In this document: piece after piece, positions 1,091 to 42,085 of the stretch
Numbering within the stretch: the first letter of the stretch is position 1
How the letters are laid out: every line of letters starts with the position of its first letter
NCBI GenBank assembly: GCA_963815195.1
Contig: CAWFGE010000014.1
Coordinates: 96,001-160,000, forward strand
DNA length: 64,000 nucleotides
From: an uncultured Planctomycetaceae bacterium
GTDB taxonomy: Bacteria; Planctomycetota; Planctomycetia; Planctomycetales; Planctomycetaceae
Direction of reading: 5' to 3'
The notes under the pieces: model-generated
What the model saw: the letters and a program-made list of their open reading frames with translations, nothing else
Database searches by the model: none
What the model was told of the DNA's origin: nothing
Made by a program: the position numbers and the translations under genes

Positions 1091-1163
1091 AAACATGCCG
1101 CAACGAAACCACGACCCTTCCAAAACCCCAACTTCACGCCGCCGGGCGGCCGGTTCCAAGACG

Positions 1164-3427: not shown

Positions 3428-3715
3428 CCGTGAGAAATCGACGCGAAAGAATCCGGAAAATGCTTGCAATCCGTCGGAGGATCCGGACAATCACTTACGC
3501 CCGCTCAAAACAGGTCCACCTCACACTTTCTCATAAAATTGGGAGGAGGGTGGACCTTGCTGTTTCGTTGACGCAAATCCAAAGGCATTTGCAGATTACA
3601 CCCAACCAACCTTACCAATTGGAGGTTACATTTAACGAATGGAAACGAGTGTGAGACGCCAGGGTGGCCAAAACGCGTCCTAACCCCACACCCAGAAACA
3701 GCATAGGCGAGAGCG
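3428..3715 (+). promoter_or_regulatory. CRISPR leader (putative)
   Basis: More AT-rich non-coding stretch between RT and the first repeat; the degenerate repeat is at the opposite end of the array. Confidence 0.7.
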
Positions 3716-11905: not shown

Positions 11906-14286
11906 TGTTCGGCGGCGATTGGTTTTCCTCTTTAACGACAATTAGGATTTCTGCTGAGTCGGTTGATTAAAGCTCCGAAGGGGCCTGTGAGCGTTTGCCA
12001 GATTTGGCGTCTTTTGCTGTTTCCACGCGATAGCTCGGGACGTTCAGTTCCAGGATCACGCTGTGATGCACCAGGCGGTCGATGGCCGCAGCGGTGGTCA
12101 TGGCGTCTTTGAAGATTTGGTCCCATTTGCTGAAAGCCAGGTTGCTGGTCAAAAGCACGCTGCCGCGTTCGTAGCGCTCGGCGAGCAATGTGAACAGCAC
12201 TTCCATTTCCTCGCGGCTTTGTTGCACATAGCCCAAGTCGTCGATGATCAAGCCCTCGAAATTCCCCAATTGTTTGATCAACTTCGGCAACCTGAGATCG
12301 CGTTTGGCAATCAGCAGTTGTTGCACCAACAGGCTGCAGGTCGTGAATAACAAGCTGCGGCCTTTCTGAATGAGTTGTTCCGAGAGACCGCACAAAGCGT
12401 GACTTTTTCCAGAGCCCGGCCTCCCAAAAATCAGCAAGTTTTCCTTGCGATCCAAGAAGGTTCCGTCGCGAAGCGTCTCCATTTGCCGCGTCACGGTGAG
12501 CGGGAGACGGTTCCACTCGAACGAGGCCCACGTTTTGCCCATCGGCAATTTCGAGCGGGTCATCAAGCGTTTGATCCGGCTTTCCCGCCGCGCTTCGCAC
12601 TCGAGCGTTGTCAGTTCCGAAAGGTACTCCAAGTGGGTTTGGTTCTCGCGGGCCGCTTGATCCGCCAGCGGGCTGAAATGATCCCGAAAGCTCGGCAGGC
12701 GCAGTTCCCGGAACTGTTCCGTCAGCGGCTTGGTCAGGTCGGGTTTCGCCGGCAGAGGCTCGCTCGCCGACGATTGGGGTGGGGTTCTCTTGCGAGAGGT
12801 TTTCGCCGAAGCTTTGGGTTTCTTGTTCATCGTCATCAATCGGACTCTCCATGTCAGGGTGATCAAGCAAACAATCGAACTCCGAAAGCGATGGCGGTTC
12901 CACATCCACATGGGTGGCCAAGGGAATCTCCGCCGCCTTCCACACCAACGAGCGAATCTCATCGAAGTCGATCGACGCGCCCGATTGGATTTTCACACGC
13001 AGCGCCTCCTGCACCGCGTCTTGACTTTCGTGGGCCGCCAACTCCAACAGTTTCAGATAGGTTTTGTCGGCCACTTTTTGCGAATGCGTTTCTAACAACC
13101 GATCGTAGGCCATGCGAAAATAGCTCGTCGGAAACAGTTCCTCGCGATACTTGTAGTTCTCGAACGCGCCCGGTTTTCGGACCAGCGAATCAATCACATG
13201 CCGATAGTTGATCGAGGCTCCGCCGCTGCCGATCAATCGCGGCATCCGCTGGATGAAAACACCCTGGTGCGTGACCTCGATGAACTCCGCGGAAATCTTC
13301 ACGTCCACCATCCGACCGATCAATCGACTGGGCACCGAATACCGATTGGTCCGCACCCGAATCGTGCTGCTCTTGGCCACACGAATGCCGGAAAGGCGTT
13401 CATCCGTGTCGAGCCGATGATCTGGCAAGCGGGCCAAGAACTCTTGTTCCAAGGCAAAGCGTTCTCGACGATGTTGATTCGTCTTCACGATCAGGTCTTC
13501 CAAGAAGGTGACATAGTCTTCGCGACTCGAAAAATCTCGACTCCCCCGCAGAAGCAGGGCTTGATCCACCCGGCTTTTGAGATGGCCGTTGGAGGATTCC
13601 ACATCGCCGTTTTCGTTCGCACATCGTGCGTTGGTTTTCTCCGGTTTGACTCCGTAATGATCCATCAACGCCTGGTAGCGCTTGGTGTGGGTTTTGCGAT
13701 CCGAATGATTGTTGACCGCCGCCGTCAAACTGTCGGTGCGATGCCGCTTCGGCACACCGCCGAACTCCCAAAAGGCTTTCTGAATCCCCGCGGACAAGGC
13801 ACTCGAACGATTCGGAAAAGCACAACGAAACCGACTCCACATTCGAGTACGTCAACACGCAATGAAACAGCGTATGATCGAACCGCTGCCCGGCGATCGT
13901 GACCCGCAGATCATTCATCACCGTAAAATCGCTGGCGGCCAATCGCCCAGGATGATGCACCTGCTCGAACATCACCGGCTTTCCAGGTCCCTTAAGACTT
14001 CGCCATTTTGCCACCCGCCGCTCGAAGGTCCGCCGCGTGGAATGGGGATACTGTCCCGGATACTTTTCCTGGAGCCACTCGAAAAGCGTCTTGGCTTTGA
14101 GACGCGGTTCGGCCTCCAAGCGGACTTGGACTTCGTCCCACACGCTCTCAAAGGGATCGACCCGCGTCCGGTAATCCCGGGCCGTTTTCCGCTCCGAGGG
14201 CAACCGCCCGTTATCGCGGTAATCCCGCGCCGTTTTTTCATCCATGCCACTCATCCTTGCCGAGGCGGCGAGAGAGAACCCCTTGT
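11906..14286 (-). mobile_element. IS21-family element copy 1 (istA-proximal end missing)
   Basis: Terminal TGTTCGGCGGCGATTGGTTTTCC at 11906; istA/istB present; similarity to copy 2 stops near 14286. Confidence 0.9.
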
Positions 14287-14290
14287 TCAT
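11932..14290 (-). pseudogene. istA: IS21 transposase IstA, 5'-truncated, with a +1 insertion near 13801
   Basis: Close homologue of the copy 2 istA (HHPGRLAASDFT, FGGVPKRHRTD, NENGDVES) split over two frames. Confidence 0.85.
11967..12836 (-). CDS. istB: IS21 helper ATPase IstB
   Basis: GRPGSGKSH Walker A, LIIDDLGY, LTSN, AAIDRLVHH, SYR. Confidence 0.95.
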   Translation of the reverse strand: MTMNKKPKASAKTSRKRTPPQSSASEPLPAKPDLTKPLTEQFRELRLPSFRDHFSPLADQAARENQTHLEYLSELTTLECEARRESRIKRLMTRSKLPMGKTWASFEWNRLPLTVTRQMETLRDGTFLDRKENLLIFGRPGSGKSHALCGLSEQLIQKGRSLLFTTCSLLVQQLLIAKRDLRLPKLIKQLGNFEGLIIDDLGYVQQSREEMEVLFTLLAERYERGSVLLTSNLAFSKWDQIFKDAMTTAAAIDRLVHHSVILELNVPSYRVETAKDAKSGKRSQAPSEL

Positions 14291-24030: not shown

Positions 24031-24243
24031 ATGTCCCAATCCCCGAACGATGGCCCGGTTTTGAACCCGCTGGCGGTGCCGATCCCGGACGCCGCCCGGC
24101 TGCTATCCCGGTTGGGCGGCAAGCCGATCAGCGAGGCGACGATTCGCAGCGACATCGATTCCGGGGCGCCGGTCAATCCGGACGGGACGTTGAACCTGGT
24201 GGAATACGCGGCCTGGCTGGTGCGTGAAATGGGGGCGAACTAA
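24031..24243 (+). CDS. Small HTH-like protein upstream of the terminase
   Basis: DAARLLSRLGG..TIRSDIDSGAPVNPDGTLNLVEYAAWL; stop overlaps the next ATG. Confidence 0.6.
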   Translation: MSQSPNDGPVLNPLAVPIPDAARLLSRLGGKPISEATIRSDIDSGAPVNPDGTLNLVEYAAWLVREMGAN

Positions 24244-26520
24244 TGGCCATTGATCCCCGCAAATTAAAACCCAGCGAATTGTGCCGGCTGTTGAATTCCA
24301 CGCCGTTGGGCGAGGTGATCAACGAACGGCAGCTGTATCGCCATCGCACGCGGGCCGGTTTCCGGATCGGCGACGGCCGGCGGATCGACCTGCTGCGGTA
24401 CGTCGCGTGGTTGATCCAGGTCCGGCACGAACCCAAGCCGGAACGCGACGCCGGCGGTTATGAGGCGATGAAGGAGCAGGCCCGTGCCCGCAACGCGGCG
24501 TTGTCGCAGTCGGGCCGGGACATCGGCGATCTGCCCCCGGTGGCCAACCCGGAACGCAAAGCGGCGGCCGCCGTCAGTTTCCGATTCTTCTGCGAATCGT
24601 ATTTCCCGCAGACGTTTCATCTGCCGTGGTCCGACGACCATTTGCGGGTGATCAACAAGATCGAGCAGGCCGTGCTGCACGGCGGGCTGTTTGCGATGGC
24701 GATGCCCCGCGGCATCGGGCAAGACGCACGCAAGCGGAGAGTGCCTGCATCTGGGCCGTCGTTATACGGCCATCGCGAGTTCGTGTGCCTGATCGGATCG
24801 GACGAAGGGCACGCGATGGACATGCTGGATTCGATCAAAATGGAATTGGACAGCAACGATTTGCTGCTGGCGGATTTCCCGGAGGTGTGCTATCCGATCC
24901 AGTGCTTGGAGGGCATCGCCAACCGCTGTGCCGGGCAGCTTTACCAGGGCGAGCGGACGCACATCAGCTGGACGGCCAAGGAGATCATCCTGCCCACGAT
25001 CCCCGATTCGCCAGCGCAGCGGCGCCATCATCAAGGTGGCCGGCATCACCGGCCGCATCCGCGGGCATGAAGATGCAAACGCGCCGACGGGCAGACCGTG
25101 CGTCCGTCGCTTGGTCGTGCTGGACGACCCGCAAACAGACGAGTCGCGCCCGCAGTCCTTATCGCAGTGCGCCAACCGCGAAAGCATCCTGGCCGGGGCC
25201 GTGTTGGGCCTGGCCGGTCCCGGCAAGAAGATTTCGGGCATCATGCCCTGCACGGTGATCCGCCCCGGCGACATGGCCGACAACATCCTGGATCGCGACA
25301 AGCATCCCGAATGGAATGGCGAACGAACGAAAATGGTGTATGCGTTCCCGACGAACGAAACGCTCTGGGCGCAGTACGCCGAGATTCGGGCCGAGGGATT
25401 GCGGGCCGGCGACGGCGGCCGAGCCGCGACGGAATTCTACCGGGAGAACGGCAGGCGATGGACGAGGGCGCGATCGTCGCCTGGGCCGCAGCGGTTCAAC
25501 CACGACGAGTTGTCCGCGATCCAGCACGCGATGAATCTGAAGCTGCAGGACGAGGCGGCGTTCTTCGCCGAATACCAGAACGAGCCGCTGCCGGAAGAAA
25601 CGATCGGCGACGATCTGCTGTCGGCCGATCAGATCGCCGGCAAGATCAACGGCATGCCAGCGGCGGGAAATCCCCATCGGCTGCAATCAACTGACGATGT
25701 TCATCGACGTGCAGCAGAACCTGTTGTTCTACGTGATCGCCGCCTGGGAAGAGGATTTCACCGGCTATGTCGTGGACTACGGCAGCTATCCCGATCAGCA
25801 GCGGGCGTATTTCACGCTTGCGGGACGCCCGCAGGACGTTATCGCACGCTGCCCCGAACACGGGCTTGGAAGGCGCCATTTATGCGGGCTTGGAAGCATT
25901 GACCGGCCAGCACCTGGGCCGCGAATGGAAGCGAGACGACGGAGCCGTGATGCGGATCGAACGCTGCCTGATCGATGCCAACTGGGGTTCGTCCACCGAT
26001 GTGGTGTATCAGTTCTGCCGGCAGAGTCCGCATGCCGCGGTGTTGCTGCCGTCCCACGGCCGGTTCGTCGGGGCGTCGAGCATGCCCTATTCGGAATACA
26101 AACGCAGGCCCGGCGACCGCGTGGGTTTGAACTGGCGGATTCCCAACGTCCGCGGCAAGCGGGCCGTCCGGCATGTGGTGTTCGATACCAACTACTGGAA
26201 AAGTTTCATCCAGGCCCGACTGGCCGTGGCGATGGGGGATCGCGGTTGCCTGTCGCTGTTCGGCAGCCAAGCCCGAAACGCATCGGTTGTTCGCCGAACA
26301 CCTCACGGCGGAATACCGGGTGAAGACCGAAGGCCGCGGCCGCACGGTGGATGAATGGAAGATTCGACCGGAACAGCCCGACAACCACTGGTTGGATTGC
26401 CTGGTGGGCTGCGCCGTCGCGGCATCGATTCAGGGCGTGATGTTGTTTGGGACGGATGCCAAACCGGTGGTGAAACGGACGCGGGTGAAATTGTCTGATC
26501 TGAAACGGGAGCGAAAATGA
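24243..26520 (+). pseudogene. Terminase large subunit (GpA-like) with an N-terminal HTH; multiple frameshifts
   Basis: AMAMPRG (broken Walker A), LVVLDDPQTD, FFAEYQNEP, MFIDVQ, CLIDANWG, DNHWLDCLVGCAVAAS spread over several frames. Confidence 0.75.
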
Positions 26521-26819
26521 AACCTTTTGACGAGGATATGATGCAAGACAAACGGCAGATCCCACCCGACGAGATGTCCGAATCCCAACGCGACCGCGAA
26601 ATCGCCACGCTCTTCGCCAGAGGCATTCTGCGGCTGCAAAAACATCGTTCTCCTTCCCGACGCAGCGACTCTGAGGAACCGCCGAAATCCTCCTCCCGAT
26701 GGCCTTGAGCTTTCCCGCGAAACGAGGCTCAGTGTCCCCACGGGTTAACGATTTCGAGAGTCGCCGCCGGCCCTGCGTTGTGGCCGGCCGGCGCCTTGGA
26801 TTCTTTTCGAGGAGATGCG

Positions 26820-27311
26820 ATGACTTTGAACGTGGCAAAAGAGTTGGCCGCCTTGGAGCGGATGACTCCCAAGCAACTGCGTGCCAAGTATGAAGAGGTG
26901 TTTGAAGAAGAATGCCGCTCCCACCATAAGCAGTGGCTGATCAAGCGGATCATCTGGCGGATGCAGGCCAATGCCGAGGGGGATTTGTCCGAGCGCGCCC
27001 GCCGGCGGGCCGAGGAATTGGCCAACGATGCGGACCTGCGGCTGAAACCGCCCCGCGATTCCGAGCCGGAACCGCGCCGGAAGACGGCGACCGCTACGGT
27101 TCCCCGCAACGAAGACGATCGGGTGCCCATGCCCGGCGTGGTGCTGACCCGCGATTACAAAGGTGAGACGTTTGCGGTTACGGTCGAGAAGGACGGCTTC
27201 GTCTATGAAGGCGAAAAATACAAATCGCTGTCCGCCGTCGCCAAGGAGATCACCGGCACGCATTGGAACGGCTACCACTTCTTCGGTCTGAAGAAAGGGG
27301 GTGCGAAATGA
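26820..27311 (+). CDS. DUF2924-family protein
   Basis: LIKRIIWRMQ..GDLSERA..PGVVLTRDYKG..YKSLSAVAKEITGTHWNGYHFFGL. Confidence 0.85.
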   Translation: MTLNVAKELAALERMTPKQLRAKYEEVFEEECRSHHKQWLIKRIIWRMQANAEGDLSERARRRAEELANDADLRLKPPRDSEPEPRRKTATATVPRNEDDRVPMPGVVLTRDYKGETFAVTVEKDGFVYEGEKYKSLSAVAKEITGTHWNGYHFFGLKKGGAK

Positions 27312-28825
27312 ACCGCTGCGCCATCTACACCCGCAAATCGACCGAAGAAGGTTTGGAGCAGGAATTCAATTCGCTCGACGCCCAGCGCGAATCGGGCGAG
27401 GCGTTCATTGCCAGCCAGCAACATGAAGGCTGGGAGTGCCTTCCTGAACACTACGACGACGGCGGATTCACCGGCGGGAACACCGACCGGCCCGCATTAC
27501 AGCGTCTGTTGGCGGACATTGAAGCCGGGCTGATCGACACCGTGGTCGTCTATAAAGTCGATCGTTTGAGCCGTTCGCTGTTGGATTTCGCCCGCATCCT
27601 GCGGACGTTCGAGAAGCACAACGTGTCCTTCGTTTCCGTCACGCAGCAATTCAACACGGCGACGTCGATGGGGCGGTTGATGCTGAATATCCTTTTGTCG
27701 TTCGCTCAATTCGAGCGGGAGATGATCAGCGAACGGACCCGCGACAAAATGGCCGCCGTGCGCCGCAAAGGCAAATGGGCGGGTGGCATGCCGATCCTGG
27801 GCTACGACGTCGAGAAGTCCAAACTGCGAATCAATGCGGACGAGGCCGAGCAGGTGCGGGAGATTTTTCGGCTGTACCTGGAGCACAAGGCCTTGATGCC
27901 CGTCGTCAAGGAATTGAACCGGCGGGGTTGGCAGCGCAAACAATGGACGACTCGCAAAAACACGATCCGCGGCGGCGGGCCGTTCAAAAAAGCCACCGTT
28001 CATGCAGTGCTGACGAATGTCGCCTACATCGGCAAGGTGCGATACAAGGACGAAGTCCACGAAGGCGAGCACCAGGGCATCGTGGACGCCGAGGTGTTCG
28101 AGCAGGTCCACGCGGTCCTGAACCGCAACGCCCGCACCGGGGGGCGGACGATGCAGAACAAGTACGGGGCTTTGCTCCGGGGTCTGTTACGCTGTGCAAC
28201 CTGCGAGTGTGCGATGTCGCACCGCTACACCGCGAAAAAGAAGTCGCTGTATCGCTATTACGTCTGCCGGCAGGCGCAGCAGCAGGGCTGGGAAGCCTGC
28301 CCGACGCCCTCGGTCCCTGCGCCGGAGATCGAGCAGTTCGTGGTCGAGCAGATCAAAGGCATCGGCCGCGATCCGGTCCTGTTGCGCGAGACGTTGGCCC
28401 AGGCCCGCCGCGAGGCCGAAGAGACGATCAAACGGCTCGAAACCGAACGGGCGGGGCTGAAGCGACAGATTCGACGCGACGAAGCCGAGTCGGCCAAGCT
28501 GGGCACCGCTACGGACGCCCATGCCGTGGACCGCTTGGCGGATCTGCAGGATCGCCGTTTCGGCGCGGAACGCCGGCTGACCGAGATCCACGAAGAGCTT
28601 CTGGCGCTTCGCTGCCATTTGGTGGACGAGGCCGAGGTCGAGACGGCACTTCGCGCATTCGATCCGGTTTGGGAATGCCTTTCCCCGAAGGAGCAGAGCC
28701 GGGTTCTGGAACTTTTGATTGAACGCGTCGAGTTCGACGGCGAGAGCGGGCAGGTTTCCATCGTGTTCCATTCCACCGGATTCCACGGGCTAATCCAACG
28801 CTTGGCTGAGGAGGACGACGCATGA
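27308..28825 (+). CDS. Large serine recombinase (resolvase, recombinase and Zn-ribbon domains)
   Basis: CAIYTRKST, DRLSRS, FAQFEREMISER, LRCATC..YRYYVC. Confidence 0.95.
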   Translation: MNRCAIYTRKSTEEGLEQEFNSLDAQRESGEAFIASQQHEGWECLPEHYDDGGFTGGNTDRPALQRLLADIEAGLIDTVVVYKVDRLSRSLLDFARILRTFEKHNVSFVSVTQQFNTATSMGRLMLNILLSFAQFEREMISERTRDKMAAVRRKGKWAGGMPILGYDVEKSKLRINADEAEQVREIFRLYLEHKALMPVVKELNRRGWQRKQWTTRKNTIRGGGPFKKATVHAVLTNVAYIGKVRYKDEVHEGEHQGIVDAEVFEQVHAVLNRNARTGGRTMQNKYGALLRGLLRCATCECAMSHRYTAKKKSLYRYYVCRQAQQQGWEACPTPSVPAPEIEQFVVEQIKGIGRDPVLLRETLAQARREAEETIKRLETERAGLKRQIRRDEAESAKLGTATDAHAVDRLADLQDRRFGAERRLTEIHEELLALRCHLVDEAEVETALRAFDPVWECLSPKEQSRVLELLIERVEFDGESGQVSIVFHSTGFHGLIQRLAEEDDA

Positions 28826-29229
28826 AACCGAAACTTGCTTTCACCCGGAAGTTCCACGTCGAACTCAGTCAGCGCGGCCGCAAGCACCTGCGGGAGCCCG
28901 AACCTAAACGCGACGTGGCCCCACGTGTGCCGCGTGTGGCCAAGCTCGTGGCCTTGGCGATAAGGTTCGAAGGTTTGATTGAGGGCGGCGTGGTGGCCGA
29001 CTACGCGGAACTGGCGCGCCTCGGGCACGTCACGCGGGCCAGGATCACGCAAGTCACCAATCTCCTCAGCCTCGCCCCGGACATCATCGAGGCGATTCTG
29101 TTTCTGCCGGCCGTGCAACGGGGAAAAGATCCGATCACCGAGCGGGATCTGCGGCCGATTGTGGCCGTGGCGGATTGGAAGAAGCAGCGGAGGTTGTGGA
29201 ATCTGTGCACGAGCCGAAAAATCGAATAA
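28822..29229 (+). CDS. Recombinase-associated HTH protein
   Basis: YAELARLGHVTRARITQVTNLLSLAPDIIEAIL; ATGA overlap with the recombinase. Confidence 0.7.
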   Translation: MKPKLAFTRKFHVELSQRGRKHLREPEPKRDVAPRVPRVAKLVALAIRFEGLIEGGVVADYAELARLGHVTRARITQVTNLLSLAPDIIEAILFLPAVQRGKDPITERDLRPIVAVADWKKQRRLWNLCTSRKIE

Positions 29230-29356: not shown

Positions 29357-31425
29357 ATGACGACCGCCACCGAGTACGCGCTACGCGTCCTGAACTTGCT
29401 TCAAATCACATCTGGCACCTTCGAATCTCCAGAACTCGACGAAAAGCGCCAGAATAATGCGGCCAACACCATGATTGCGATTGTGTTAAGCCGGTTGTCT
29501 TCAAATCAGGCCGTGCCGAAACATCTGAAGCACACCCGATACCAGTGGGCCGATGGGGTCATTTCGATAAGAAACACCCGCATTGGAGACCACCATTGGT
29601 CGAACATCAGTAAGAAAACATTAGACGAGTTAAGGCAGTTGGCCGAGAAGGAACCCTTGCTCCAGTTGTTCACATTTTTCGATGTCGATAACAAACGGCT
29701 TCATGTTTGGAGCGTTCCCGAATCAGTCGCCCGTGAGTCGCTGCTGGAGTTGGAGCCCGGCAAAAGCGGTTTACGAAACATTGAAATCTATCCGGGCACG
29801 CACCGGTTCCATAAGGTTCCGGATTCGTACGACCTTTCGCCGTATTATTGTTCGACTCAGCTTACAGACCCAGAATCAAACTGCTTGGCCGAGGCCATTA
29901 AATTGGATCTCGTTGCAAAAGAACAACAGCCCACTTCGGTCGTCCTCTCGATCGACGAAGATGAAGGGACGGAAGCCGAAGCCACGGGGATTGCCTACAC
30001 GAGTTCCACCATCGATTTCCTTCTCGAACTTCCACAGCACGCCACTGATTCGAAGTGGCACAAAGAGAACAAGCGGCGCTATGAGAAGGTGCTCAGAGAG
30101 CCTACCCGCAATTTGGTCGAGGAACTGCGGGATCGTTACATACAAGCGCTAAGCCAAGAGGTCGCAGCAGCAGGAAACCATTTATCGATCTTAAAAAAGA
30201 ATGATTACGGCCAAGGCGGATACCATGACCATTTTTGGTTCGCATTTTACGATCCAGAGGCGGGGAGCAAGATCAAAAGTTGCCAGCTCTTTTTCCGCAT
30301 GTTCGGTGGCGAACAGGTTTGGCGATATGGGTTTTCTATGGGAAACCTCTGCGAGGCCTACATCGCTCGACTAAAGAATGCGATTCAAACGAATCGAGAA
30401 GCCGTTGTGAGGTATGTACGGTCCGCGCCCGAAAATACGATTTTTCGCGAGCATGGGGATAAGAACGACTGGGACTACTCCCGCGAGGAATTTGCAGAGG
30501 CCCTTTCACGGCCACTCACGGACGAGCCACATCCCCTGGATTCCTCGTCGACTTGGTTCAGCGTCATTTGCGAATTCCCACTGGACGAGCTTGTCGACCA
30601 TGCAGAGGAAATCGTCGACGAGGTTGGCCAGTTTTTTGACTGGGTCTGGCCGTTTTTTAAGTCCAGTATCGATGGTCAATGGCCGGTTTCCAAAGGATCG
30701 GAATCGACTGGAAGCGATGTCGAGGTCGACGAAGACTCACCCGAGACCCTTGAGGAGCTCCACGAGCTTTCCTCGTTGCCCATCGACTTTTTAGCAAACT
30801 TGGAAAACGCACTCCTCACGAAGCAGCAGGTTGTGTTAACGGGTCCACCCGGAACCAGCAAAACGTATATCGCCGACCTGTTTGGGCGGTATTTTTCACG
30901 TCAACGGACGGGTCAATCCCAAGGCAAATCCGGAACGTTGTATATGCATGCGAACTGGTCCTACGAAGATTTCTTCGAGGGGCTCAAACCGTCCTCGCAT
31001 AGTGGGTCCCTGGTGTTTGAGTCGAAGAAAGGATTTTTCCTGGAGTGGGTGGTGGGGCTCCGCGAATACGATCCGTCGGCCAGACATGTATTGATTCTCG
31101 ATGAGATCAATCGATGCGACACGGCAGCGGTTCTGGGTGAATTGCTTCAGCTGTTGGAATATCGCGGGCGGCAGGTGCCGCTTCTGTCGGGGTCCAAGTT
31201 TATTTTCCCGAGGAACCTCTACATCATCGGGACGATGAATAGCGCGGACCGATCAATTGGGCGCATGGATTTGGCGTTACGGCGGCGGTTCTTGTGGATA
31301 GAGCTTCTTCCCCGTCCCGATGTGCTTCAAAAATGGCTCGATCGACGGGGGAATAACCCCGTGGGATTCTCTGCGGACTCTCTGCGCCAATGCAACCTGA
31401 TTCTTGAAGAAATGGGCATACCCCC
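29357..31425 (+). pseudogene. McrB-family AAA+ GTPase truncated by IS21
   Basis: GPPGTSKT, SYEDFFEG, ILDEINR, GTMNSADRS, ALRRRF; the frame runs into the IS end at 31426; no mcrC in the window. Confidence 0.85.
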
Positions 31426-31451
31426 TGTTCGGCGACGATTGGTTTTCCACT

Positions 31452-33863
31452 TTAGCGGCGATTAGAATTTCTGCCGAGTCGGTGAATTAAGGCTCCGAAA
31501 GTGCCTGTGAGTCTTTGCCAGATTTGGCTTCTTTTGCCGTTTCCACGCGGTAGCTGGGGACGTTCAATTCCAGGATTACGCTGTGGTGGACTAGGCGGTC
31601 GATGGCCGCGGCGGTCGTCATCGCGTCCTTGAAGATTTGGTCCCACTTGCTGAAGGCCAGGTTGCTCGTCAAGAGCACGCTGCCGCGTTCGTAGCGTTCG
31701 GCCAACAGCGTAAACAGCACTTCCATCTCCTCGCGACTTTGCTGCACATAGCCCAAGTCGTCGATGATCAAGCCCTCGAAACTCTCCAGTTGTTTGATCA
31801 GTTTGGGCAACCGCAAATCGCGTTTGGCAATTAGCAGTTGTTGCACCAACAGGCTGCACGTCGTGAACAGCAAGCTGCGGCCTTTTTGAATGAGTTGCTC
31901 CGAGAGACCGCACAAAGCGTGACTTTTTCCAGAGCCCGGCCTCCCAAAAATCAGCAAGTTTTCGCGGCGATCCAAGAAGGTTCCGTCGCGGAGCGTTTCC
32001 ATTTGCCGCGTCACCGTGAGTGGAAGGCGGTTCCACTCGAACGAGGCCCACGTTTTGCCCATCGGCAATTTCGAGCGCGTGAAGAGCCGCCTGATCCGGC
32101 TCTCCCGCCGCGCTTCGCATTCCAGCGTCGTCAGTTCCGAAAGATACTCCAAGTGCGTTTGGTTCTCCCGCGCCGCTTGATCCGCCATCGGGCCGAAATG
32201 ATCCCGAAAGCTCGGCAAGCGAAGTTCCCGAAACTGTTCCGTCAGCGGCCTGGTCAGGTCCGGTTTTGGGGGATGCGGCGTTCTCGCTGGGGAACTCGCC
32301 GGGCGCGGTTTTCGCGGGGAGGTTTTCTTTGGACTCTGAGATTTTTTCCGGTTCTTGTTCGTAGTCATCAAACGGACTCTCCATGTCAGGGTGATCAAGC
32401 AAACAATCAAACTCCGAGAGCGACGGCGGTTCCACGTCCACGTCCGTGGCTAAGGGAATCTCCGCCGCTTTCGACACCAACAAGCGAATCGACTCGACAT
32501 CAATCGACTCGCCCGATTGGATTTTCAAACGCAGCACTTCATGCACGGCGTCTTGACTTTCGTGGGCCGCCAACTCCAACAGTTTGAGATAGGTTTTGTC
32601 GGCCACTTTTTGCGAATGCGTTTCCAACAGCCGATCATAGGCCATCCGAAAATAGCTCGTCGGAAACAGCTCCTCGCGATACTTGTAATTCTCGAACGCC
32701 CCCGGTTTTCGGACCAAAGAATCAATCACATGCCGATAGTTGATCGAGGCTCCGCCGCTGCCGATCAAACGCGGCATGCGTTGAATGAAAACGCCTTGGT
32801 GCGTGACCTCGATGTATTCGGCACTCATCTGGACATCCACCTTTTGGCCGATCAATCGGCTGGGCACCGAGTAGCGGTTGGTTCGCACGCGAATCGTGCT
32901 GCTCTTCGCCACGCGAATGCCTTGAAGCCTTTCATCCGTATCCAGCCGATGATCCGGCAGGCGGGCCAAAAACTCTTGCTCAAAGGCAAAGCGTTTTTGA
33001 CGATGTTGATTCGTCTTGGCCATCAGGGCTTCCAGGAAACTCACATAGTCTTCGCGGCTGGAAAAATCCCGGCTGCCGCGCAGAAGCAGGGCTTGATCCA
33101 CCCGGTGTTTGAGATGGCCGTTCGAGGATTCCACATCGCCGTTTTCATTGGCGCAACGGGCGTTGGTTTTCTCCGGCTGACTGCCGTAGTGATCCATCAA
33201 CGCCTGGTAGCGTGCGGTATGCGTCTTGCGATCCGAATGGTTGTTGACCGCCGCGCTCAAACTGTCGGTGCGATGCCGCTTCGGCACGCCGCCGAACTCC
33301 CAAAAGGCTTTCTGAATCCCCGCGCTCAAAGCCTCAAACGATTCGGAAAAACAGAGCGAAACCGACTCCACGTTCGAGTAGGTCAGCACGCAATGAAACA
33401 GCGTATGATCGAAACGCTGCCCGGCGATCTTCACGCCCAGATCGTTCATCACCGTGAAATCGCTGGCCGCCAACCGGCCCGGATGGTGCACCTGCTCGAA
33501 CATCACCGGCTTTCCCGGCCCCGAAAGGCTTCGCCATTTCGCCACCCGCCGCTCAAAAGTTCGCCGGGTGGAATTGGGAAACTGCCCCGAGTATTTCTCC
33601 TGGAGCCATTCAAAGAGCGTCTTGGCTTTGAGGCGCGGTTCCGCTTCCAAGCGGGCTTGGACTTCGTCCCACACCCTCTCAAAGGGATCGACGCGTGTTC
33701 GGTACTCCCGGGGCTTTTTCCGCTCCGAGGGCAACCGCCCGTCATCCCGGTACTTCCGCCCGGTTTTTTCATCCATGCCACTCATCCTTGCCGAGGCAGC
33801 GAGAGAGAGTCCCTTGTCGAGCAATCGCCGCAGTTCCAAAACTTGTCCATTGGTGATCATCAC
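31452..33863 (-). CDS. istA: IS21 transposase IstA (frame stays open across all of istB)
   Basis: N-terminal HTH, DDE-region motifs ASDFT, RTDS, GDVES, NRYSVP. Confidence 0.9.
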   Translation of the reverse strand: MMITNGQVLELRRLLDKGLSLAASARMSGMDEKTGRKYRDDGRLPSERKKPREYRTRVDPFERVWDEVQARLEAEPRLKAKTLFEWLQEKYSGQFPNSTRRTFERRVAKWRSLSGPGKPVMFEQVHHPGRLAASDFTVMNDLGVKIAGQRFDHTLFHCVLTYSNVESVSLCFSESFEALSAGIQKAFWEFGGVPKRHRTDSLSAAVNNHSDRKTHTARYQALMDHYGSQPEKTNARCANENGDVESSNGHLKHRVDQALLLRGSRDFSSREDYVSFLEALMAKTNQHRQKRFAFEQEFLARLPDHRLDTDERLQGIRVAKSSTIRVRTNRYSVPSRLIGQKVDVQMSAEYIEVTHQGVFIQRMPRLIGSGGASINYRHVIDSLVRKPGAFENYKYREELFPTSYFRMAYDRLLETHSQKVADKTYLKLLELAAHESQDAVHEVLRLKIQSGESIDVESIRLLVSKAAEIPLATDVDVEPPSLSEFDCLLDHPDMESPFDDYEQEPEKISESKENLPAKTAPGEFPSENAASPKTGPDQAADGTVSGTSLAELSGSFRPDGGSSGAGEPNALGVSFGTDDAGMRSAAGEPDQAALHALEIADGQNVGLVRVEPPSTHGDAANGNAPRRNLLGSPRKLADFWEAGLWKKSRFVRSLGATHSKRPQLAVHDVQPVGATTANCQTRFAVAQTDQTTGEFRGLDHRRLGLCAAKSRGDGSAVYAVGRTLRTRQRALDEQPGLQQVGPNLQGRDDDRRGHRPPSPPQRNPGIERPQLPRGNGKRSQIWQRLTGTFGALIHRLGRNSNRR
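31487..32368 (-). CDS. istB: IS21 helper ATPase IstB
   Basis: GRPGSGKSH, LIIDDLGY, AAIDRLVHH. Confidence 0.95.
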   Translation of the reverse strand: MTTNKNRKKSQSPKKTSPRKPRPASSPARTPHPPKPDLTRPLTEQFRELRLPSFRDHFGPMADQAARENQTHLEYLSELTTLECEARRESRIRRLFTRSKLPMGKTWASFEWNRLPLTVTRQMETLRDGTFLDRRENLLIFGRPGSGKSHALCGLSEQLIQKGRSLLFTTCSLLVQQLLIAKRDLRLPKLIKQLESFEGLIIDDLGYVQQSREEMEVLFTLLAERYERGSVLLTSNLAFSKWDQIFKDAMTTAAAIDRLVHHSVILELNVPSYRVETAKEAKSGKDSQALSEP

Positions 33864-34058: not shown

Positions 34059-37000
34059 CTATTCGCTTTTTTCCTCGCTGACACCACCTTCAACGCCTGA
34101 TAGTTCTTCCAGGTCCGTATTTTTGAAATGAGGACCAATCAACCGAGACACAGTGGCCGAAATCGAACGAACTCGGCCGGCCACCCACGGTTCCGAATGT
34201 GGTGCCATCTCCTGCATATTCGCACGCCAAGTACTGACCGCACTTACCCATTCGGTCCATCGTCCGGACTCGGCGAGCCGCTGCACCGCACTTCCGGCAC
34301 CCGCGTTGACCGACATCTGCAGAACACGCATTGCCAGGAGGCGAACCCTTTCAGGATCACTGAGCCCCTCGATGGCATATGTGAGCAGGTGTGGAAGGCG
34401 AATGGACCAATTGGCGATCTGATGCTGCTGGAACTCAGCGCACGCCTCTAAGAGCGGGTCCACGACAATCTCAGATGCACTTGCCAGAAACTCCACCACA
34501 TCATCCGTCTGTTCCAACCACTTCGCGAACGTCTCATCGTATGCTGTCGTCGAATTGACGAGGTCCTTCAATGCGAGAGCGAGCAAATGTTGTACGTGCG
34601 GAGGGAGTTGAGAGAACCGATCGAGATAAGATGCAACCTGTTTAGGGTCCGACAGTTCTTTGCGAAAGGCTAGTAGACCGACGAGTTGCTCACTGACTTC
34701 GTGCGGCCCGTACCCTTCAACGGTACAGAGAAATTCCAGCCCTTCATTCTCCTGAAAAGCAAATGGAACTTCTGCATCGCCCCAGGGCTGTGCAAGATGG
34801 CTTGTCACGAGATAGCTGTGAAGCATGTTTGCAATGGTTTGCTGGACCGCGTTTGGAATTCCCGGTAGCTGCGGTAAGGATTCTGCAGCCAAACCCAGAT
34901 TTGTTAGAAGAGACATGGCCCACACGGACTGTAATTGGAGTGTCGCGTACCTCATCGGTGAAGGGATAACCGGAGAGCGGGCAACGGTCCACCGAAAATA
35001 GGCGGACCGCCAATGCGGCAGCACAATTTCTCGCAATGCCCATTCCGCATTCCTCTCACTTTTTCCCAAGAGTTCTCCAACCTTCGCCGCAAGCCACCAC
35101 GCATAACAGGCAATGGCTTCCCCGTGCTGAGTGGGGTGAATTGCTTCGATGTGATAAGCAAAATGCGATGCCAGTTCGCAGGATAGTCGCCAACGTGCAC
35201 TGGTTTGCGGCAACTCCTTGGCAGTGTCATCCGGGTTCAGGATGTTGGACGCTTCGCTCCAGAATTGCTCCCACTCGTCGACTGGCCGCACCTGCGGGAC
35301 GTGCAAGGCGACTGTAACGGCATGATAGCGTGCAATAGGGTTGATTTGTCGCTCGGCCCATTTCCACACGTCTGCCCAACTCACTTTGTTATCCTGGTGC
35401 GCGGATATCCATAAGGTTACAAGCCGAGCAGCGCTGAGATCGTTCGACAGCGGGACATACCCGCAACGCTGCAAGTAGCCTGTGAGTGCATCATCAAGGG
35501 CCGGGTGTTTCGCGAGATCCTGAATCCAGGAAATGATCTCCTGCCGCTGCTCGGAGGGGTGCCATACATGTGGCCGATAATTGACCAGAGTCTCAAAACT
35601 GGGGTTCATCACTTCGCCGACGTAATGGTTTATCCCCTCCTTGTAGTTTGCAGCCAAGCATTGACGAAGACAGGTTTGGATACCGAATAGATCAATCCGT
35701 ACCGTTTCGGCTGCGGTGGTCGCCGCACCTCGCCATCTATCCTCTTCCATTGAGGCAATATCAGCGTACGCGTCCTTCAAAATATTTAAGGTGTGTGACG
35801 TCAGCCACGGGTATTCCGACTCTCCTGCGGCGATCAGGTAGACGAGCGCGGCCCGGCGTAACTCAGCCTCTGGGCGAAACAGAAGACTGTCTACTTCGAT
35901 GACAGATACGCTTTCTTCCTCAGGAATAAAGACGAGTCCCCCTGGTCCACCGAGGTTCTGCGTGGATTGACTTGCTTCGCGCAGCATGTCAGCAAGGCCC
36001 TCAGGAAGGGGAGGCGGCGTGGCGTCTTCCAATAAACCGAGGGCCTTGAACCGCGAAAATGCCAGTGCGTCGAGTCGACCTTCCTTGAGGTGGAACAGCG
36101 TATTTTGCATCATCAGGTTGCAGAATGCCATTTCACCTTCCGGCTCGACTCCAAGCGTATCTTCTTTATCCATCAACACTTTGATGGCGTTGGCCGCTTC
36201 AGCTAAATACTGATCTTCACTAATCCCAAGAGCCTCGGCTAGGGTCCGCAGGGCTCGATTTGCACGGCCCCGGTCATGAATGCTCGTGAATTGGACCATC
36301 GCCATGCTTAAAACAGAGAGTCGCTCCCTCTGGGCAATATTGTAGCCGATTTGGTTGTACCATAGCCCTCGAGGGCAAGAGGGGATCAGCTCCTCTCCAA
36401 CCCACATCGTCAGAACTACACAGGCTTCCTCAGAGAATTTTCCGTCACTCCAAACCTTAGCGAGAAACGAGGCTGTGGAATTCATCCAGGCGGTTACGTA
36501 TTTGATTGCCATCGGCATCGGTGGATCGGACTGCTCTGGGCCACAGTGTAGGCCGGGATCTCGCAATGAGTCATGCAGATAGAAGGCAGCGTCGAGCAGG
36601 GCGGGTCCCGGTAAATTCTCTGCGGACTCTTCAGCCCACGCATAGAGGATCTCCGACGACGGTACCAGGAACCGATACCGCCATTTCATCAACTGGTGAA
36701 AATCCCGAGCAGCGGAAACTGCATCATACGTTCCACATCTCTGCATACCGAGTACCACACAATCGGACCCACAGGCGAGAAGAGGGCCGTTCGTCTCATC
36801 GTGGGACGCTAGAACTTGGAGAACACGATCATCGGCAAGAAGTGGATATCTGAGGTGTTGCGCAAGGCGGATCGAGTCGAGGAAGAGTACATCGTCCTCC
36901 TCTGTATCCGGGTTCTCACTCGGCTCTGGAGGTGCCGGTAGAGGTTTCCAACTGATCTTGCCACGGTCAGCCAAGTCAGTAACAGTCTGCCACAGTTCGT

Positions 37001-39505
37001 CGTGAAGTTGCCGCGCAGAGCGAGCGGACTCATGTGCCCGCAGCTCCGAAAGCAGTTCCTCATATTCTGTAGCCCGGATGCAAATCGACAGCGCACTGAT
37101 TACCTCTTCGAAGACGGCCTGATTAGAAATCTGTCGTAAGGTCATCAAGCTAACAAGGACGGTGTCTCCTAATTGAAGTTCGGGGTGCACCGCATCAACC
37201 GCCGATGGCCTGTGGGCGACCCTAGACAGTTCCGCGAGGGCCGCTGGCGTGACCTTCTGTGTGGTTTTCAGGAGCGGAAGGAGGTCTTGCAGTCGGTAAA
37301 CGTGGTTCTCCCGATCGTCGGAATACTCATCTAGTTCGATTCCGCTCTCCGGCCACTGCGATTCAACACGAATTCGGCGTTGCTCAATACTCTTCCGGAT
37401 TGCAAGAAGCTCTTGCTCGCGGGAGGGCTGGTGCTGCGCAAATCGATCGGCATCACGGACATGAAGAAGGCCATAGCTGGCTGGGAGGATGATGCAGTCG
37501 AAGTGCTCTGCCGCTCTCTCCAGTGCATCGAGCTTGAAAAGAGTCAGGAGGGCAGTCAGATCGGCAACCACATGAGTGCCTGCCGGCGGAGCGGTCAGTT
37601 CATGCAGGAGTTTGCCCATTGGTGTACTTAGACCAGTGAAACTATTCGTCGCATAGACTGAGAATGCCGCTCGCGTCAGCGGCTCTTCTGATAACCATTT
37701 AAGTTCTTGCGTATGAAGAGTCCACGCCCATGCTGGAGCATTTCCTAGGGAGTCCTCAGCGAAAAGCCACGTCATTCGTCCAGCGATTAACGCCCGCTGC
37801 AGAGCTTCTCGACGGCTCTGAAAATTCCTGCCATGCTCAAGTATCTGCTCGATTGTCCCTTCCTGGAGCAATTCCATTGGGATCTTTCCCTCGCGGCGCA
37901 GTTCCAGGATCCTCGCAAAAGCCTCATGTGCGAGCCGATCATTACCAGCGGCGTAACCACGTTGCATGTAGCTGAAGAGAAATCTTGGATCGTCCCAATG
38001 GTCCGGTGCAATAGCCTCGAGCAACTGAAAGGCATCAGCCGGCTTAGTATCGGCTACCAGAAGCTCGCTAAGGAAGAGAATGGCTTCAAGCGGAGCATCC
38101 TCCGCGTCGCATACGGGCTTCAATACCTCGATTGCCTTAGCGGTTCGAGCTGTTCGTGCTAGGGCTTGTGCAAGCCACATCCGGTAGTCCCGATTCGAAG
38201 AATTCAGTTCGACCAAGCGCTTGAGGTAGGTCGCCGCTTGTACGTGGTCACCAAGTTGCACAAGAGCCCACACCAGCGTCCTCAGGTGCTCTTCATTGTC
38301 GGGTTTTTCTTCCAATAGCTGTATTAGTCCTCGAATCGCGCTCTGATATCGACGACGGTCGATCGACGCCTTGATGCTCCTGCGAACCACATCTGGATGC
38401 GGCACGAGTTCGCTGGCCTTCTCCCATGCGTGTACAGCACCTGCCTCGTCTCCGCTTCGTTCACAGAACTGAGCATGTGCCTGCCACCACACTCCGTCCG
38501 ATTCGTTACGCACGGCGTCGAGCTGCTCCTTCGCCTGCGGAAGGTTACCATCGACCAAGTGTTTCATGGCATGCAAGAGACCGAGGAACCGACTACCGCC
38601 CGGCCTGAGACGTGTGACGACCTCGATGGCCTTATCAATTTGAGCAGCCCCGCACCGAACACTAGTCTCGAAGAGACTGATACATACCGATTCCTTCGCG
38701 TCCTCGCTGGTTGCATTGGCGGAGAGTTCCACTAGAGCCTTGAACGCGGCTTCGGGTTTGTCGAATAGATCTCGCTCCATAATCGCCGCCAGAAGCGCGG
38801 CCTGAAAGTCGTTGGGGTGCTCCACACGCATTCGGTTGGGCAGTCCCTCGGGTGTGATCTGTATAAGCCCTCGGAGACACAGCTCGGCTACAATCAATGG
38901 TACTGGCACGTACTTCACCAGCCAGTGAGTATACTGAGAAAGGAATTCCTGGTCTCTGGTGATCCAGCGCAATACACGGCATAGGTTACCGCACTGAACT
39001 CATACTCGCCTACGATCTTTCGGTTAGCGCGTACTGAAGAGAGCAACGGATCAAGGATTTCGATGACAGTCCTCGCCAGTTCGACGTCAGTGTCTGCCCA
39101 CGGCTCAGGATCTAGTAGTGAATGGCCCGGATGCTGCTTCCGCCAGCCCTCGATGACACCCTCAGCGAACCCGAGGCGAGATAATCGCATAACGACAAGG
39201 CTGCAGGAAGCATCCGCCTGTTCCACGAGGTATTGTGCGCGGGTAATGTCTCCCAGGAATGCAAAGGCAACAATGGCAAGGTGAATCCACTCGTCGTCGA
39301 CGCGCCGGTCACGGATAAGGTCTACAGCAACTTGATGGCGGCTAGCGCGCAGCAAGATCGCGAGGGCAGCGCGCATGCGTATTGGGTCCGTGAGAGGGCC
39401 TAGCAGCTGCAATGCGGCATCGGGTCCACTGGTGAGTTCCGCCTCTAGCGCTTTCGCGGCGATAAGCTTGGCGTGTTGCTCGTCAAATTGATTAGTCAGT
39501 GACAC
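34059..39505 (-). CDS. Giant (about 1800 aa) TPR plus PIN-like protein; probably one gene with a frameshift near 38965
   Basis: AAGGAGG RBS and GTG at 39505; the 196-aa and 1637-aa ORFs join with a one-base shift (YAVYC/WITRDQ); TPR-like helices; VVADLTALLTLFKLDAL..IILP and DSIRLAQ..PLLADDRVL (PIN-like). Confidence 0.65.
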
Positions 39506-41021
39506 ACTCAGCCTCCTTAAGCAATTCCTGCAGCCGCGTCACGTCGGGTACTTCTCCGGATTGTTTCTCGTTTAGGAGGTGTTTCTGCTCAAGCCTCACT
39601 AGGAGGAGCCACCCATGCCGTACGATTGCTCCCTTGCGGGATACGGTCCTCAGCAGTTTCTCCAACTCAACGGCCGATGGGCCGGTTTCCTTCCAGCGAC
39701 CACTCTCTATTAAGGTGTCTACTCGCTCATTCAACTGCTGGATTTGGACGTACTGAGGAGCCAAGGGTTGGAGTTCCGGGACAATGATCAATGGGAAATC
39801 GAGTTCCGGAGGCACGCCGACGCCTTCGGAAGCCACCGGTTTGAATGCGATGGTCGGAGATACTTGGTGCTTCACTGGCCCAGCTTCCCCAACCTGTTCC
39901 GCGGATACTTGGTCTGTCGAGTGTTTGGACGAGTCAATCTTCGGTGGAATAGCTGGCGATTCGACGGAGGTGGAAGCTGCGGCGGTGGGAACCGCCTGGA
40001 CTGGCGGAAAAGTTTCCAATTCCTGAAGCGCAGTCGGGTGGAGGTGCTCAATGACGGCCCGAGTGTAGGCCGCCGCAATCAAAGCGGCGTAGGAGTGCCA
40101 GTCATCGTTTTTCGTTGAATTGCAGTAATCACAGGTACCACGGACGACGAGATAACCTACATTTGCGACCCAGCTCGCGTCGGCCACTCCGGAGCCTTCC
40201 ATTTCAACAGCTCTGATGTTCCAGCGATTCCGTAGTGCATCGCGTTTTTTCGGGTCAGCAAGCACGATGTTGGCCGCGCCAATGGCACCGCGGAACACGC
40301 GAGGTTTGCCATGCCGACGATCGAGATCCTTTGGATGTGGGACGGCATCTCCCGTTCCATCCGGCGTATCAATTAGTCTATCCTTTTTCGGTGCCGGGCG
40401 TTTCCACGACCGAGAACTCTCGAAGCGTCTCAGAAACTCGTTTATTTTCTTGTCCCAATCCCGGAGATCCTGGTGCCCCAATAACCTCTCACGGGAATGC
40501 ATATTTCCCACAGCCGCCAGCAGTTGAGGGCACGGTGGCCGCGCTGTTCCGCGGAACTCGAACCCAGTGAACGGATCGTCGTTTGTTCGGTGGGGGTCGC
40601 GCTGTTTTCCAAAATCGTACTGAATGATGCCGGGCGGACCACTCACGACAATGTCCCCCAGACGGACATGATCCTCCGGCTTACCTGGGTGCGGCACTGC
40701 ACCCGCGATGCCGCACATGATCAGTGATTCAATCGCTTCGCAGTGTTGCAGGAGGATGTTCGCTGCGATCGCCGCCGCGGTGTTTCCCATTGACGGTAGA
40801 CGCGTAATGGCGACCACGTGCTCCCCCCCGTGCTTGGAGGGAATAAAGCACAGCCAGCAGGTGAGTGCACCGGAGGTTGAGCGTTTCTGCCTCTCAATTC
40901 CCTGCTGGTCGGGGTCAAAAATGCCCAGACAGGCCGAGTATTCCTCTTCCAGCGCGGTTAATACCCCAATAGTGACGTGCCGAAACTCCAACTGTGGTTC
41001 CTCGGAATACTGGCGTAACAT
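39492..41021 (-). CDS. PNP/MTA-SAH nucleosidase-family effector plus Pro-rich linker and C-terminal helical domain
   Basis: IGVLTALEEEY, MGNTAAA, CGIAGAVP, RLGDIVVS, AVEMEGSG, VRGTCDYC..KNDDW..YAALIAAAY. Confidence 0.85.
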   Translation of the reverse strand: MLRQYSEEPQLEFRHVTIGVLTALEEEYSACLGIFDPDQQGIERQKRSTSGALTCWLCFIPSKHGGEHVVAITRLPSMGNTAAAIAANILLQHCEAIESLIMCGIAGAVPHPGKPEDHVRLGDIVVSGPPGIIQYDFGKQRDPHRTNDDPFTGFEFRGTARPPCPQLLAAVGNMHSRERLLGHQDLRDWDKKINEFLRRFESSRSWKRPAPKKDRLIDTPDGTGDAVPHPKDLDRRHGKPRVFRGAIGAANIVLADPKKRDALRNRWNIRAVEMEGSGVADASWVANVGYLVVRGTCDYCNSTKNDDWHSYAALIAAAYTRAVIEHLHPTALQELETFPPVQAVPTAAASTSVESPAIPPKIDSSKHSTDQVSAEQVGEAGPVKHQVSPTIAFKPVASEGVGVPPELDFPLIIVPELQPLAPQYVQIQQLNERVDTLIESGRWKETGPSAVELEKLLRTVSRKGAIVRHGWLLLVRLEQKHLLNEKQSGEVPDVTRLQELLKEAECVTD

Positions 41022-41580
41022 TACGGCAGGCTCCTCCGAGATTACCGTTCAAACACTCGGAATTGTTAGGGAGAATTCCTCGCCAGAAGATGTTGAATCG
41101 ACGAGAAACACGCATTGTCATTGGATCAGTGATGATGCCTTAGCATACCGCAAAACTCCGAAGCCACACAACTTCTTGCATCTCAATTTGATTCCAATCC
41201 GTCCCAAAAATACGGCTAATCCCTCGTTTTCCAGGACAAAACCGACTTTTCGACCGCCGATTTACCCACAGATTCAGGTGAGGAGGTAGAATGTTAGCGA
41301 CGGCAATACTATTTGACCCAACACAATGCTTCGCGACGGCACGATCAAGTTGGATGGAAAGGAACAGCAGACTGATCGACACGCGGGGAAGTCGGAAGAC
41401 GATCGATTCTCAATCGAACTGCACGACGGCCTATCTATTCTCAAGCCAAGTCAGTTAGGCAAGGGTTCGGACCGGTGCAAAATTATGAACCCCGAACCCA
41501 CTGGTTTACTGGCCGGTTGTTAACCTCTGGGGGCTGTTTACCAAGAGAGTCCGAGAGTTCGTACGCGGATTTTTGCGACC

Positions 41581-41609
41581 CCGAAGCGAACCCCTAGGGT
41601 TCGCTTCGG
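41581..41609. repeat. Palindrome with 13-bp arms
   Basis: CCGAAGCGAACCC-CTA-GGGTTCGCTTCGG. Confidence 0.6.
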
Positions 41610-41941
41610 ACCCCAAAAAACAATTGCCTAACCCGAGAGCGCGGGGTAGGATGGAAAGATTGCCGAAAGGCTAGAGTCCACGCGGGTTAAGGCAAAACGC
41701 CAAGCGCTCTCGCATCGGGCGTCTTGAGTCAACCAGTGGGTACGGGGATTCCGTACAAAAACTTTTAGCTCCACGGCAAGGACGCGAATCTTGAACCTAC
41801 CGGTTAAGAGCTCAACTGGGTGATTCAAAATGTAGTAAAATGTAGTTAATTGAACGGAAGTTTTCCAAATATGACTGAATTTGACCGGAATTCGATTAGG
41901 ATCAAGAATCCATGAAAACGCTGGATTAGTAGAGTTTCTGC

Positions 41942-42085
41942 TTACTCGGTGGTGGTATTCTGATACTTATCGTCGACGAGAATCAGCAGGATGTTCGGTT
42001 TTCGGGCGGGCTCCGCGCCGTCGGCCGGACCTGGGCGGACGATCCCATAACACAACGCGAGCAACACACAACAAAACCAGCGCAT
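41942..42085 (-). pseudogene. Sulfatase N-terminal stub (signal peptide plus KPNILLILVDD, then premature stop)
   Basis: MRWFCCVLLALCYGIVRPGPADGAEPARKPNILLILVDD|KYQNTTTE*; GAAAGG RBS. Confidence 0.75.

Follow-up and report, generated by a model that had tools for sequence, protein, structure and literature searches.

Among described defence systems, the closest counterparts of the locus reported here are the TPR-GreA/B-C-PIN (TGP) proteins, which are mostly stand-alone single genes and in which a variable N-terminal effector (PNPase, SIR2, TIR, or restriction endonuclease, REase) precedes a TPR solenoid, a PIN domain (PF20698), and a post-PIN region (Kaur et al. 2021, PMC8195603). In the Bab/Agp system of Escherichia coli ECOR25, an effector gene is followed by an adjacent gene for a TGP-type sensor, and the two proteins are linked through the effector C-terminus and the sensor N-terminus; abortive infection has been shown, and the TGP protein activates the separately encoded effector (bioRxiv 10.1101/2024.11.07.622273). 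Nucleosidases of the PF01048 family are known as immune effectors from Cap17 and DtcC (bioRxiv 10.1101/2023.01.24.525353). Here, we describe a locus in a 64,000-nucleotide stretch (hereafter, the window; positions 96,001 to 160,000 of contig CAWFGE010000014.1, assembly GCA_963815195.1) from an uncultured Planctomycetaceae bacterium, in which a nucleosidase gene (module A) overlaps the gene of a giant partner with TPR repeats and tandem PIN domains (module B) and a helical module C (Table 1; positions are those of the window). We put the probability at roughly 55% that the two genes act by abortive infection, the large protein recognising phage and then turning on a docked enzyme that destroys ATP; that they serve defence in one way or another is highly probable. 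The basis comprises the gene structure, a three-module family with swapped effectors, the loss of GreA/B-C, the duplication of the PIN domain, intact nucleosidase active-site residues, and a defence-island setting.

The nucleosidase open reading frame (ORF; 41021-39492, minus strand) matches PF01048 with 50.6 bits (Pfam; cut-off, 25.1), and its PNP domain is matched by the CBASS PN-superfamily effector model of PADLOC (E 3.5e-16) and by methylthioadenosine/S-adenosylhomocysteine (MTA/SAH) nucleosidases of the PDB (E 1e-5). In an alignment of 51 sequences, E27 (39/39 ungapped), E275 and R294 (51/51 each), and D298 (50/51) are conserved, and the window PNP keeps them all, with E275 in the motif E273-M274-E275. 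We take E27/E275/R294/D298 to be the catalytic set E12/E174/R193/D197 of MtnN. The original observation that the PNP stop overlaps a GTG start with an AAGGAGG ribosome-binding site was borne out: the TAA (39494-39492) lies within a 14-nt overlap with the GTG of the partner at 39505, which is preceded by AAGGAGG at 39518-39512, and the A/B junctions overlap in 5/5 other split loci examined. A promoter search gave nothing above chance, and the window has no match to an Rfam family.

The last 90 residues of the PNP, which follow a long, variable linker and align (by eye) as amphipathic helices, are conserved in 51 of 120 PNP matches, the window protein included. With an iterated profile of this three-helix tail (five found in round one, with later E-values inflated by inclusion; best of 69 controls, E 0.14), 24 of the 32 fused proteins were found to have the tail directly ahead of module B, and all five separate upstream ORFs to end with it, irrespective of the effector type. 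Furthermore, 17 of the 27 tail-bearing PNPs on contigs of at least 7 kb match a B homologue in exact contig size, compared to none of 37 tail-less PNPs; this is indirect evidence for adjacency and agrees with the expectation that homologue pairs are conserved. Judged from sequence comparison, the tail is part of the conserved core and, where A and B are separate genes, stays with the effector; because it stands directly ahead of B in fused relatives, docking is the likely reason for its conservation. Nine genome loci with a PNP alone (L001-L009) match neither the tail nor B or C, and therefore, the PNP subfamily serves other systems too. Four tail-bearing PNPs (P0033, P0039, P0040, and P0048) have 200-320 extra N-terminal residues without a convincing Pfam family, possibly second effectors. 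At L013:8635-9404, inside a DISARM locus, all that is left of module A is a small membrane-peptide-like ORF and an ORF for the tail alone, and no enzyme can be recognised.

As assembled, the partner consists of two ORFs, 39505-38915 (196 aa) and 38972-34059 (1637 aa), which overlap around 38966. Of the 15 homologues, P0009 is a fragment; the other 14 include the N-terminus and match both pieces in register, and one 99%-class contig of run X1 (depth 3.5; possibly from the source sample) has one extra base behind 38966, which restores the frame exactly where the homologues predict; no further stop or break was found across 7 kb of the locus. Since 14/14 homologues read through and one read contig has the missing base, the break, for which a check of a frameshift at 38965 had been proposed, is most likely an assembly error and the partner one gene of about 1815 aa. 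Elsewhere in the window (11932-14290, 24243-26354, and 31452-33863), IS21 transposase and terminase-like genes look frameshifted, consistent with indel errors in the assembly.

The Pfam matches of the partner are restricted to TPR families (TPR_19, E 1.7e-9) and PIN (PF20698, 25.8 bits, just below the cut-off of 27.8; the homologues P0011 and P0012 reach 36.0 and 41.8); no GreA/B or NTPase family matches, and PADLOC, which recognised the PNP domain alone, has no match to the partner. The TPR repeats, the PIN-like region, and the lack of an obvious GreA/B or NTPase motif had all been noted before, along with an assignment as a possible variant that fits the latter; the doubling of the PIN domain had been missed. 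In the AlphaFold2 model of module B (residues 182 onwards of the full protein; pLDDT 89.5), a TPR solenoid is followed first by a small helical unit and a hairpin and then by two alpha/beta units, one after the other, and the end is helical; between TPR and PIN1 the model has helices and one hairpin only. For comparison with TGP, local sub-profiles were used in hhalign instead of forced whole-length alignment of B, which mis-registers. Two places in B align with the TGP PIN (95.8% and 94.2%) and one with the post-PIN region (73.7%, E 2.9e-5), whereas the HTH-like unit aligns weakly (32.7%); PIN1 aligns to PIN2 over 117 columns (91.4%). Among 70 aligned sequences, some of them near-duplicates, the first Asp of PIN1 is kept in 70 and the D-D-R of PIN2 in 70, 68, and 70; PIN1 is without the helix carrying the third acidic residue, and the first Asp of PIN2 is Asp in only 32/70 and Ser in the window protein.

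Modules B and C belong to a larger family. A search with the partner gave 15 homologues besides itself: seven have 1788-1807 aa, one is a fragment, one is a REase-like fusion, and six, with 1104-1113 aa, end ahead of the last 700 residues. One relative lies around WP_397570423.1 of Schlesneria sp. T3-172, and the names of close homologues point to a planctomycete as the probable host. In the 23 family loci (21 metagenome loci and two genomes), the order of modules is fixed as A (effector), B (about 1110 aa), and C (about 680 aa), arranged as A|B|C, A-B|C, A-B-C, or, as in the window, A|B-C, where a bar separates genes and a hyphen marks fusion. In 10 of these loci, effector and B form one protein (A-B or A-B-C), and in 21, C directly follows B; L010 ends inside B, and L027 is truncated. 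Hence, of the proposed two-gene split sensor-effector system, the split, the relation to TPR-GreA/B-PIN proteins, and the lack of GreA/B hold, but there are three modules, not two; and the long C-terminal region indeed belongs to no known family but is usually a separate third gene, which had escaped notice. Among 401 genomes of the phylum, the profiles of B and C match the same three, one of which is the source genome. The C profile collects 604 clusters at 50% identity, 374 of them at E<=1e-30; of the 148 newly listed C matches, 127 stand alone with 600-760 aa and 10 belong to fusions of more than 1700 aa. The predicted structure of module C is almost all-helical (pLDDT 93.2, pTM 0.94), and searches gave generic repeat matches only, with no Pfam, PADLOC, or PDB family and no fold match.

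By Pfam, the effector is a PNP in L012, L014, L018, and L025 (TIR plus PNP in P0060 and P0035), SIR2 in L028 and L029, an alpha/beta-hydrolase in L020 and L033, and a metallophosphoesterase in L019. The heads in L015, L016, L017, L022, and P0013 we presume, from their motifs, to be REase-like. At L028:14393-16677 and L029:9022-11275, a gene for a ParA-like ATPase and an unknown gene of 430-460 aa come after the SIR2-A-B-C fusions, in which module C is divergent. A sister group of HTH-double-PIN proteins without module C (P0321, P0322, and P0323) has one TIR and two REase-like heads, and two of its members have long unexplained C-termini.

How does this family relate to the described systems? 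With the TGP proteins, it shares the variable effector (in the window, on a separate gene), the TPR solenoid, a homologous PIN, and the post-PIN region (PMC8195603). As reference, we used five canonical TGP proteins, one of them from the source genome; a sixth is also without GreA/B-C. The GreA/B-C region of the five scores at most 0.2% against modules B and C and the tail, compared to 94.5% for the GreA of the source genome as a control, and none of the 23 family loci matches it. Because this domain, which lies between TPR and PIN and defines the TGP proteins, is absent, the window system is not a TGP member. It differs further by the duplicated PIN and the module C of about 680 aa, which is present in none of six TGP-type loci, and by an effector that is split off with a helical tail, unlike the mostly single-gene TGPs. 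The canonical GreA/B-C TGP of the source genome (G000:C9, L048:5414-9173), with an Mrr-like REase head, is in pieces as assembled and adjoins an IS21-like element and another recombinase module; genes for a HerA-like ATPase and a DNA-methylase-like protein are adjacent.

The proposed linkage of effector C-terminus and sensor N-terminus is the one known from Bab/Agp; however, Agp depends on GreA/B-C, and its signal reaches a membrane-targeting Bell domain through an amyloid motif (bioRxiv 10.1101/2024.11.07.622273), whereas the window system has a helical tail as link, an enzyme as effector, two PINs, and module C. A Bell-domain effector is not found at the locus, where the upstream gene is PF01048. 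With Cap17 and DtcC, the nucleosidase shares the PF01048 domain and the conserved catalytic Asp (bioRxiv 10.1101/2023.01.24.525353), but the window system has no cyclase, TPALS sensor, or two-component partner, and neither the Pfam nor the PADLOC matches of the partner indicate a CD-NTase or two-component gene. The Pfam family PF24407 ("HTH_upstream_double_PIN"), for which Pfam gives a domain name only and no paper was found, shares the order of one helix-turn-helix (HTH) and two PINs and is present in homologues (P0290, 30.1 bits with a cut-off of 27; P0318 also above cut-off) but not, at E<=0.1, in the window partner itself. Three strong PF24407 proteins match the core of B (E 1e-16 to 1e-19) and, unlike the window family, are without module C. 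Furthermore, the source table of Kaur et al. (Fig. 2 source data 1, PMC8195603) has GreA-less "TPR+PIN" rows, the term occurring 359 times, and one 2304-aa "SIR2+TPR+PIN+PIN" row (MBI4846278.1) that agrees with the L028 protein in length and domain order, compared by description and not by sequence; the first 16 of 40 occurrences of PNPase+TPR are fusions with GreA/B-C. With these rows and the Pfam double-PIN name, the ground is not wholly new. No description of the tandem-PIN and module C family, the three-part organization, or the helical tail was found in the literature covered; most subscription papers and bioRxiv supplements (e.g., Table S4 of the ATP-nucleosidase paper) are outside this coverage and may list members, and the accessible parts of PMC7159879, PMC13092281, PMC9503650, and bioRxiv 2026.10.19.760177 hold nothing on the family. 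In its mode of action, the window system would resemble TGP and Bab/Agp, but by the GreA/B-C test it is not a TGP member.

The relatives lie in defence islands, as had been expected. Of 16 loci (all of the 23 but five short fragments and the two genome loci), 8 adjoin RM, DISARM, or Abi-type genes, compared to none of 16 random regions. In these 16 loci, 23 of 85 flanking proteins, distributed over 8 loci, match PADLOC at E<=1e-25, with type I and IIG restriction-modification (RM), DISARM, AbiE, PDC-M25, and SNF2 helicases among them; in random 8-kb control regions of the source genome, 4/80 proteins in 4/16 loci match (reverse transcriptase and ATPase-type mad3), none of them RM-like. In the window, the locus is carried as cargo behind a module with DUF2924 and recombinase genes, which is present at other places in the genome too. 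A SIR2-TGP in another genome (L046:3498-10827, G343) adjoins the same trio of DUF2924-like, recombinase, and ~140-aa genes, which suggests that the module is a hotspot for defence cargo in the phylum. The G+C content of the locus is 55.4% (genome, 59.7%), a value as low being found in 32/1254 windows of 7 kb, and that of third codon positions (GC3) is 57-61%, compared to 78-81% in three nearby genes. The compositional distinctness that had been seen is real but only moderate, because lexA has a GC3 of 57% as well. The element that ends 33 bp past the stop of the partner gene is presumably of the IS21 type, judged from its ORF features. It cuts, without target duplication, the McrB-like gene that had been noted next to the system; this gene is 2.6 kb away, and no McrC (PF10117) was found in the 94.6%-complete genome. 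As a component of the system, McrB was rejected: it is truncated and on the opposite strand, and the neighbours vary between loci. On the other side, a non-coding stretch of ~550 bp (41451-41998) without Rfam match recurs at 84% identity on C13 and C7 and, in part, at 78% on C14 and may mark the end of the element. Upstream of the mobile element, at 1026-5000, ORF translations indicate a Cas1-like gene, a reverse-transcriptase-like gene, and a CRISPR-like repeat array.

Table 1. Features of the locus and its surroundings (window positions)
Feature	Position	Strand	Remarks
Module A gene, PNP/MTAN-type nucleosidase effector, 509 aa	39492..41021	-	enzyme domain, variable linker, three-helix tail
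PNP domain, aa 14-330	40032..40982	-	PF01048; PADLOC CBASS PN-superfamily effector model; PDB MTA/SAH nucleosidases
Conserved ~90-aa three-helix tail, aa 418-509, likely docking element	39495..39770	-	
AAGGAGG ribosome-binding site and GTG start within the end of the PNP gene (translational coupling)	39503..39518	-	
Partner gene, B and C fused, ~1815 aa, two ORFs as assembled	34059..39505	-	
Probable one-base assembly deletion splitting the partner gene	38966..38967	.	homologue alignment; run X1 contig
TPR-containing helical solenoid (full protein, about aa 1-538)	37893..39505	-	
HTH-like unit upstream of the PINs; TGP proteins have GreA/B-C and an HTH-like unit there	37713..37862	-	
PIN1	37203..37580	-	first Asp kept, helix with third acidic residue gone
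PIN2	36693..37169	-	C-terminal DDR kept, first Asp is Ser
Post-PIN helical region, near-invariant WRYRF motif, homologous to TGP C-terminus	36183..36692	-	
Module C, ~680 aa, helical almost throughout, not assigned to any family; usually encoded by its own gene downstream	34125..36161	-	
Presumed IS21-type element, istA/istB-like ORFs, copies elsewhere in the genome	31425..34025	-	
McrB-like DUF2461-AAA_5 gene, neighbour outside the system, truncated by IS21	29357..31465	+	
DUF2924, serine recombinase, and 135-aa gene: end of the mobile element carrying the cargo	26778..29229	+	

In our model, the three-helix tail, which is the first solenoid element in fused relatives, would dock the PNP on the N-terminus of the partner. 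Module C and the TPR solenoid may take over the sensing done by GreA/B-C in TGP and Agp, a role suggested for module C because it takes the place of GreA/B-C as the constant extra part. The trigger would then probably be a phage protein or another guarded complex and not the secondary channel of RNA polymerase. The tandem PIN may bind RNA and possibly cut it, perhaps with acidic residues contributed by the two partly degenerate copies. Triggering could cluster or reorient the docked PNP domains, which would then hydrolyse ATP/dATP, as Cap17 and DtcC do, and arrest the infected cell.

Several points weigh against this model. By profile, the tail was not detected in 8 of the 32 fused proteins, the SIR2 forms among these, and it gives no alignment with canonical TGP proteins. 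The acidic PIN residues are divided between two partly degenerate copies, and neither PIN of the window protein has the full catalytic set; nothing hints at a function of module C. No relatives were found in phage, viral, and plasmid collections, and the control regions of the island comparison are from one genome, with two of them overlapping. The ATP specificity is assigned by analogy, and a quick tree has long branches and no Cap17 or DtcC row.

It is also imaginable, although we regard it as rather unlikely, that the large protein acts as a guard or antitoxin that binds the tail and holds a constitutively active nucleosidase off until phage damage or displacement frees it. Translational coupling at every split junction examined would fit the fixed stoichiometry needed, the linker ahead of the tail is long and variable, and the isolated Cap17 PNP domain is toxic by itself (bioRxiv 10.1101/2023.01.24.525353); yet release would need proteolysis in the 10 family loci with a fused effector, and the TGP protein of Bab/Agp activates and does not inhibit (bioRxiv 10.1101/2024.11.07.622273). 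The roles may also be divided differently, with the tandem PIN as the main antiviral RNase and the PNP as back-up or as maker of a signal (adenine, ribose-5'-triphosphate). Kaur et al. proposed the PIN as first line and the effector as back-up (PMC8195603), and the invariant Asp of PIN1 and DDR of PIN2, as well as the tail ORF of L013, which has no recognisable enzyme, are in line with this. However, the incomplete first position of PIN2 and the known lethal enzyme types that fill the effector slot in most loci make it doubtful. A truly frameshifted partner, and hence a decaying relic beside an insertion sequence, is improbable: the break is present in the assembly, the read support against it is a single contig of depth 3.5, and the neighbouring McrB gene is truncated by IS21, but the extra base restores the frame at the predicted place, the 7 kb are otherwise intact, and other window genes (IS21 istA and terminase) look frameshifted as well. 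Last, a housekeeping MTA/SAH nucleosidase that lies beside a TPR gene by chance is hardly credible, since, although MtnN models and structures are the best named matches of the PNP and no over-cut-off MtnN was found in the source genome, its equivalog scores are far below cut-off (NF004079, 66 vs 169 bits; TIGR01704, 31 vs 73.8), housekeeping MtnN rows group apart from it in the quick tree, it has 509 aa and a tail common to non-PNP effectors, and SIR2, REase-like, and hydrolase domains fill its slot in relatives.

A more far-reaching and rather speculative reading is an undescribed three-module immune family of several hundred members, in which module C would be a new phage-sensing receptor replacing the RNA-polymerase-binding GreA/B-C, the half-degenerate PINs might make one composite RNase or RNA-sensing site, and effectors would plug in via the first three helices of the sensor solenoid, a helical split-repeat docking code and non-amyloid counterpart of Bab/Agp.

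For TGP systems, GreA/B-C is considered the domain by which infection is sensed at RNA polymerase, and Agp, the one tested member found in the accessible literature, needs it. A branch without GreA/B-C, with a doubled PIN and a near-constant partner of 680 aa, must detect infection otherwise, which points toward a new sensor domain with a testable trigger. In the split form, the sensor can swap lethal enzymes via a small helical adaptor. The PADLOC models used miss both core modules, and therefore, several hundred likely defence loci would go uncalled by them.

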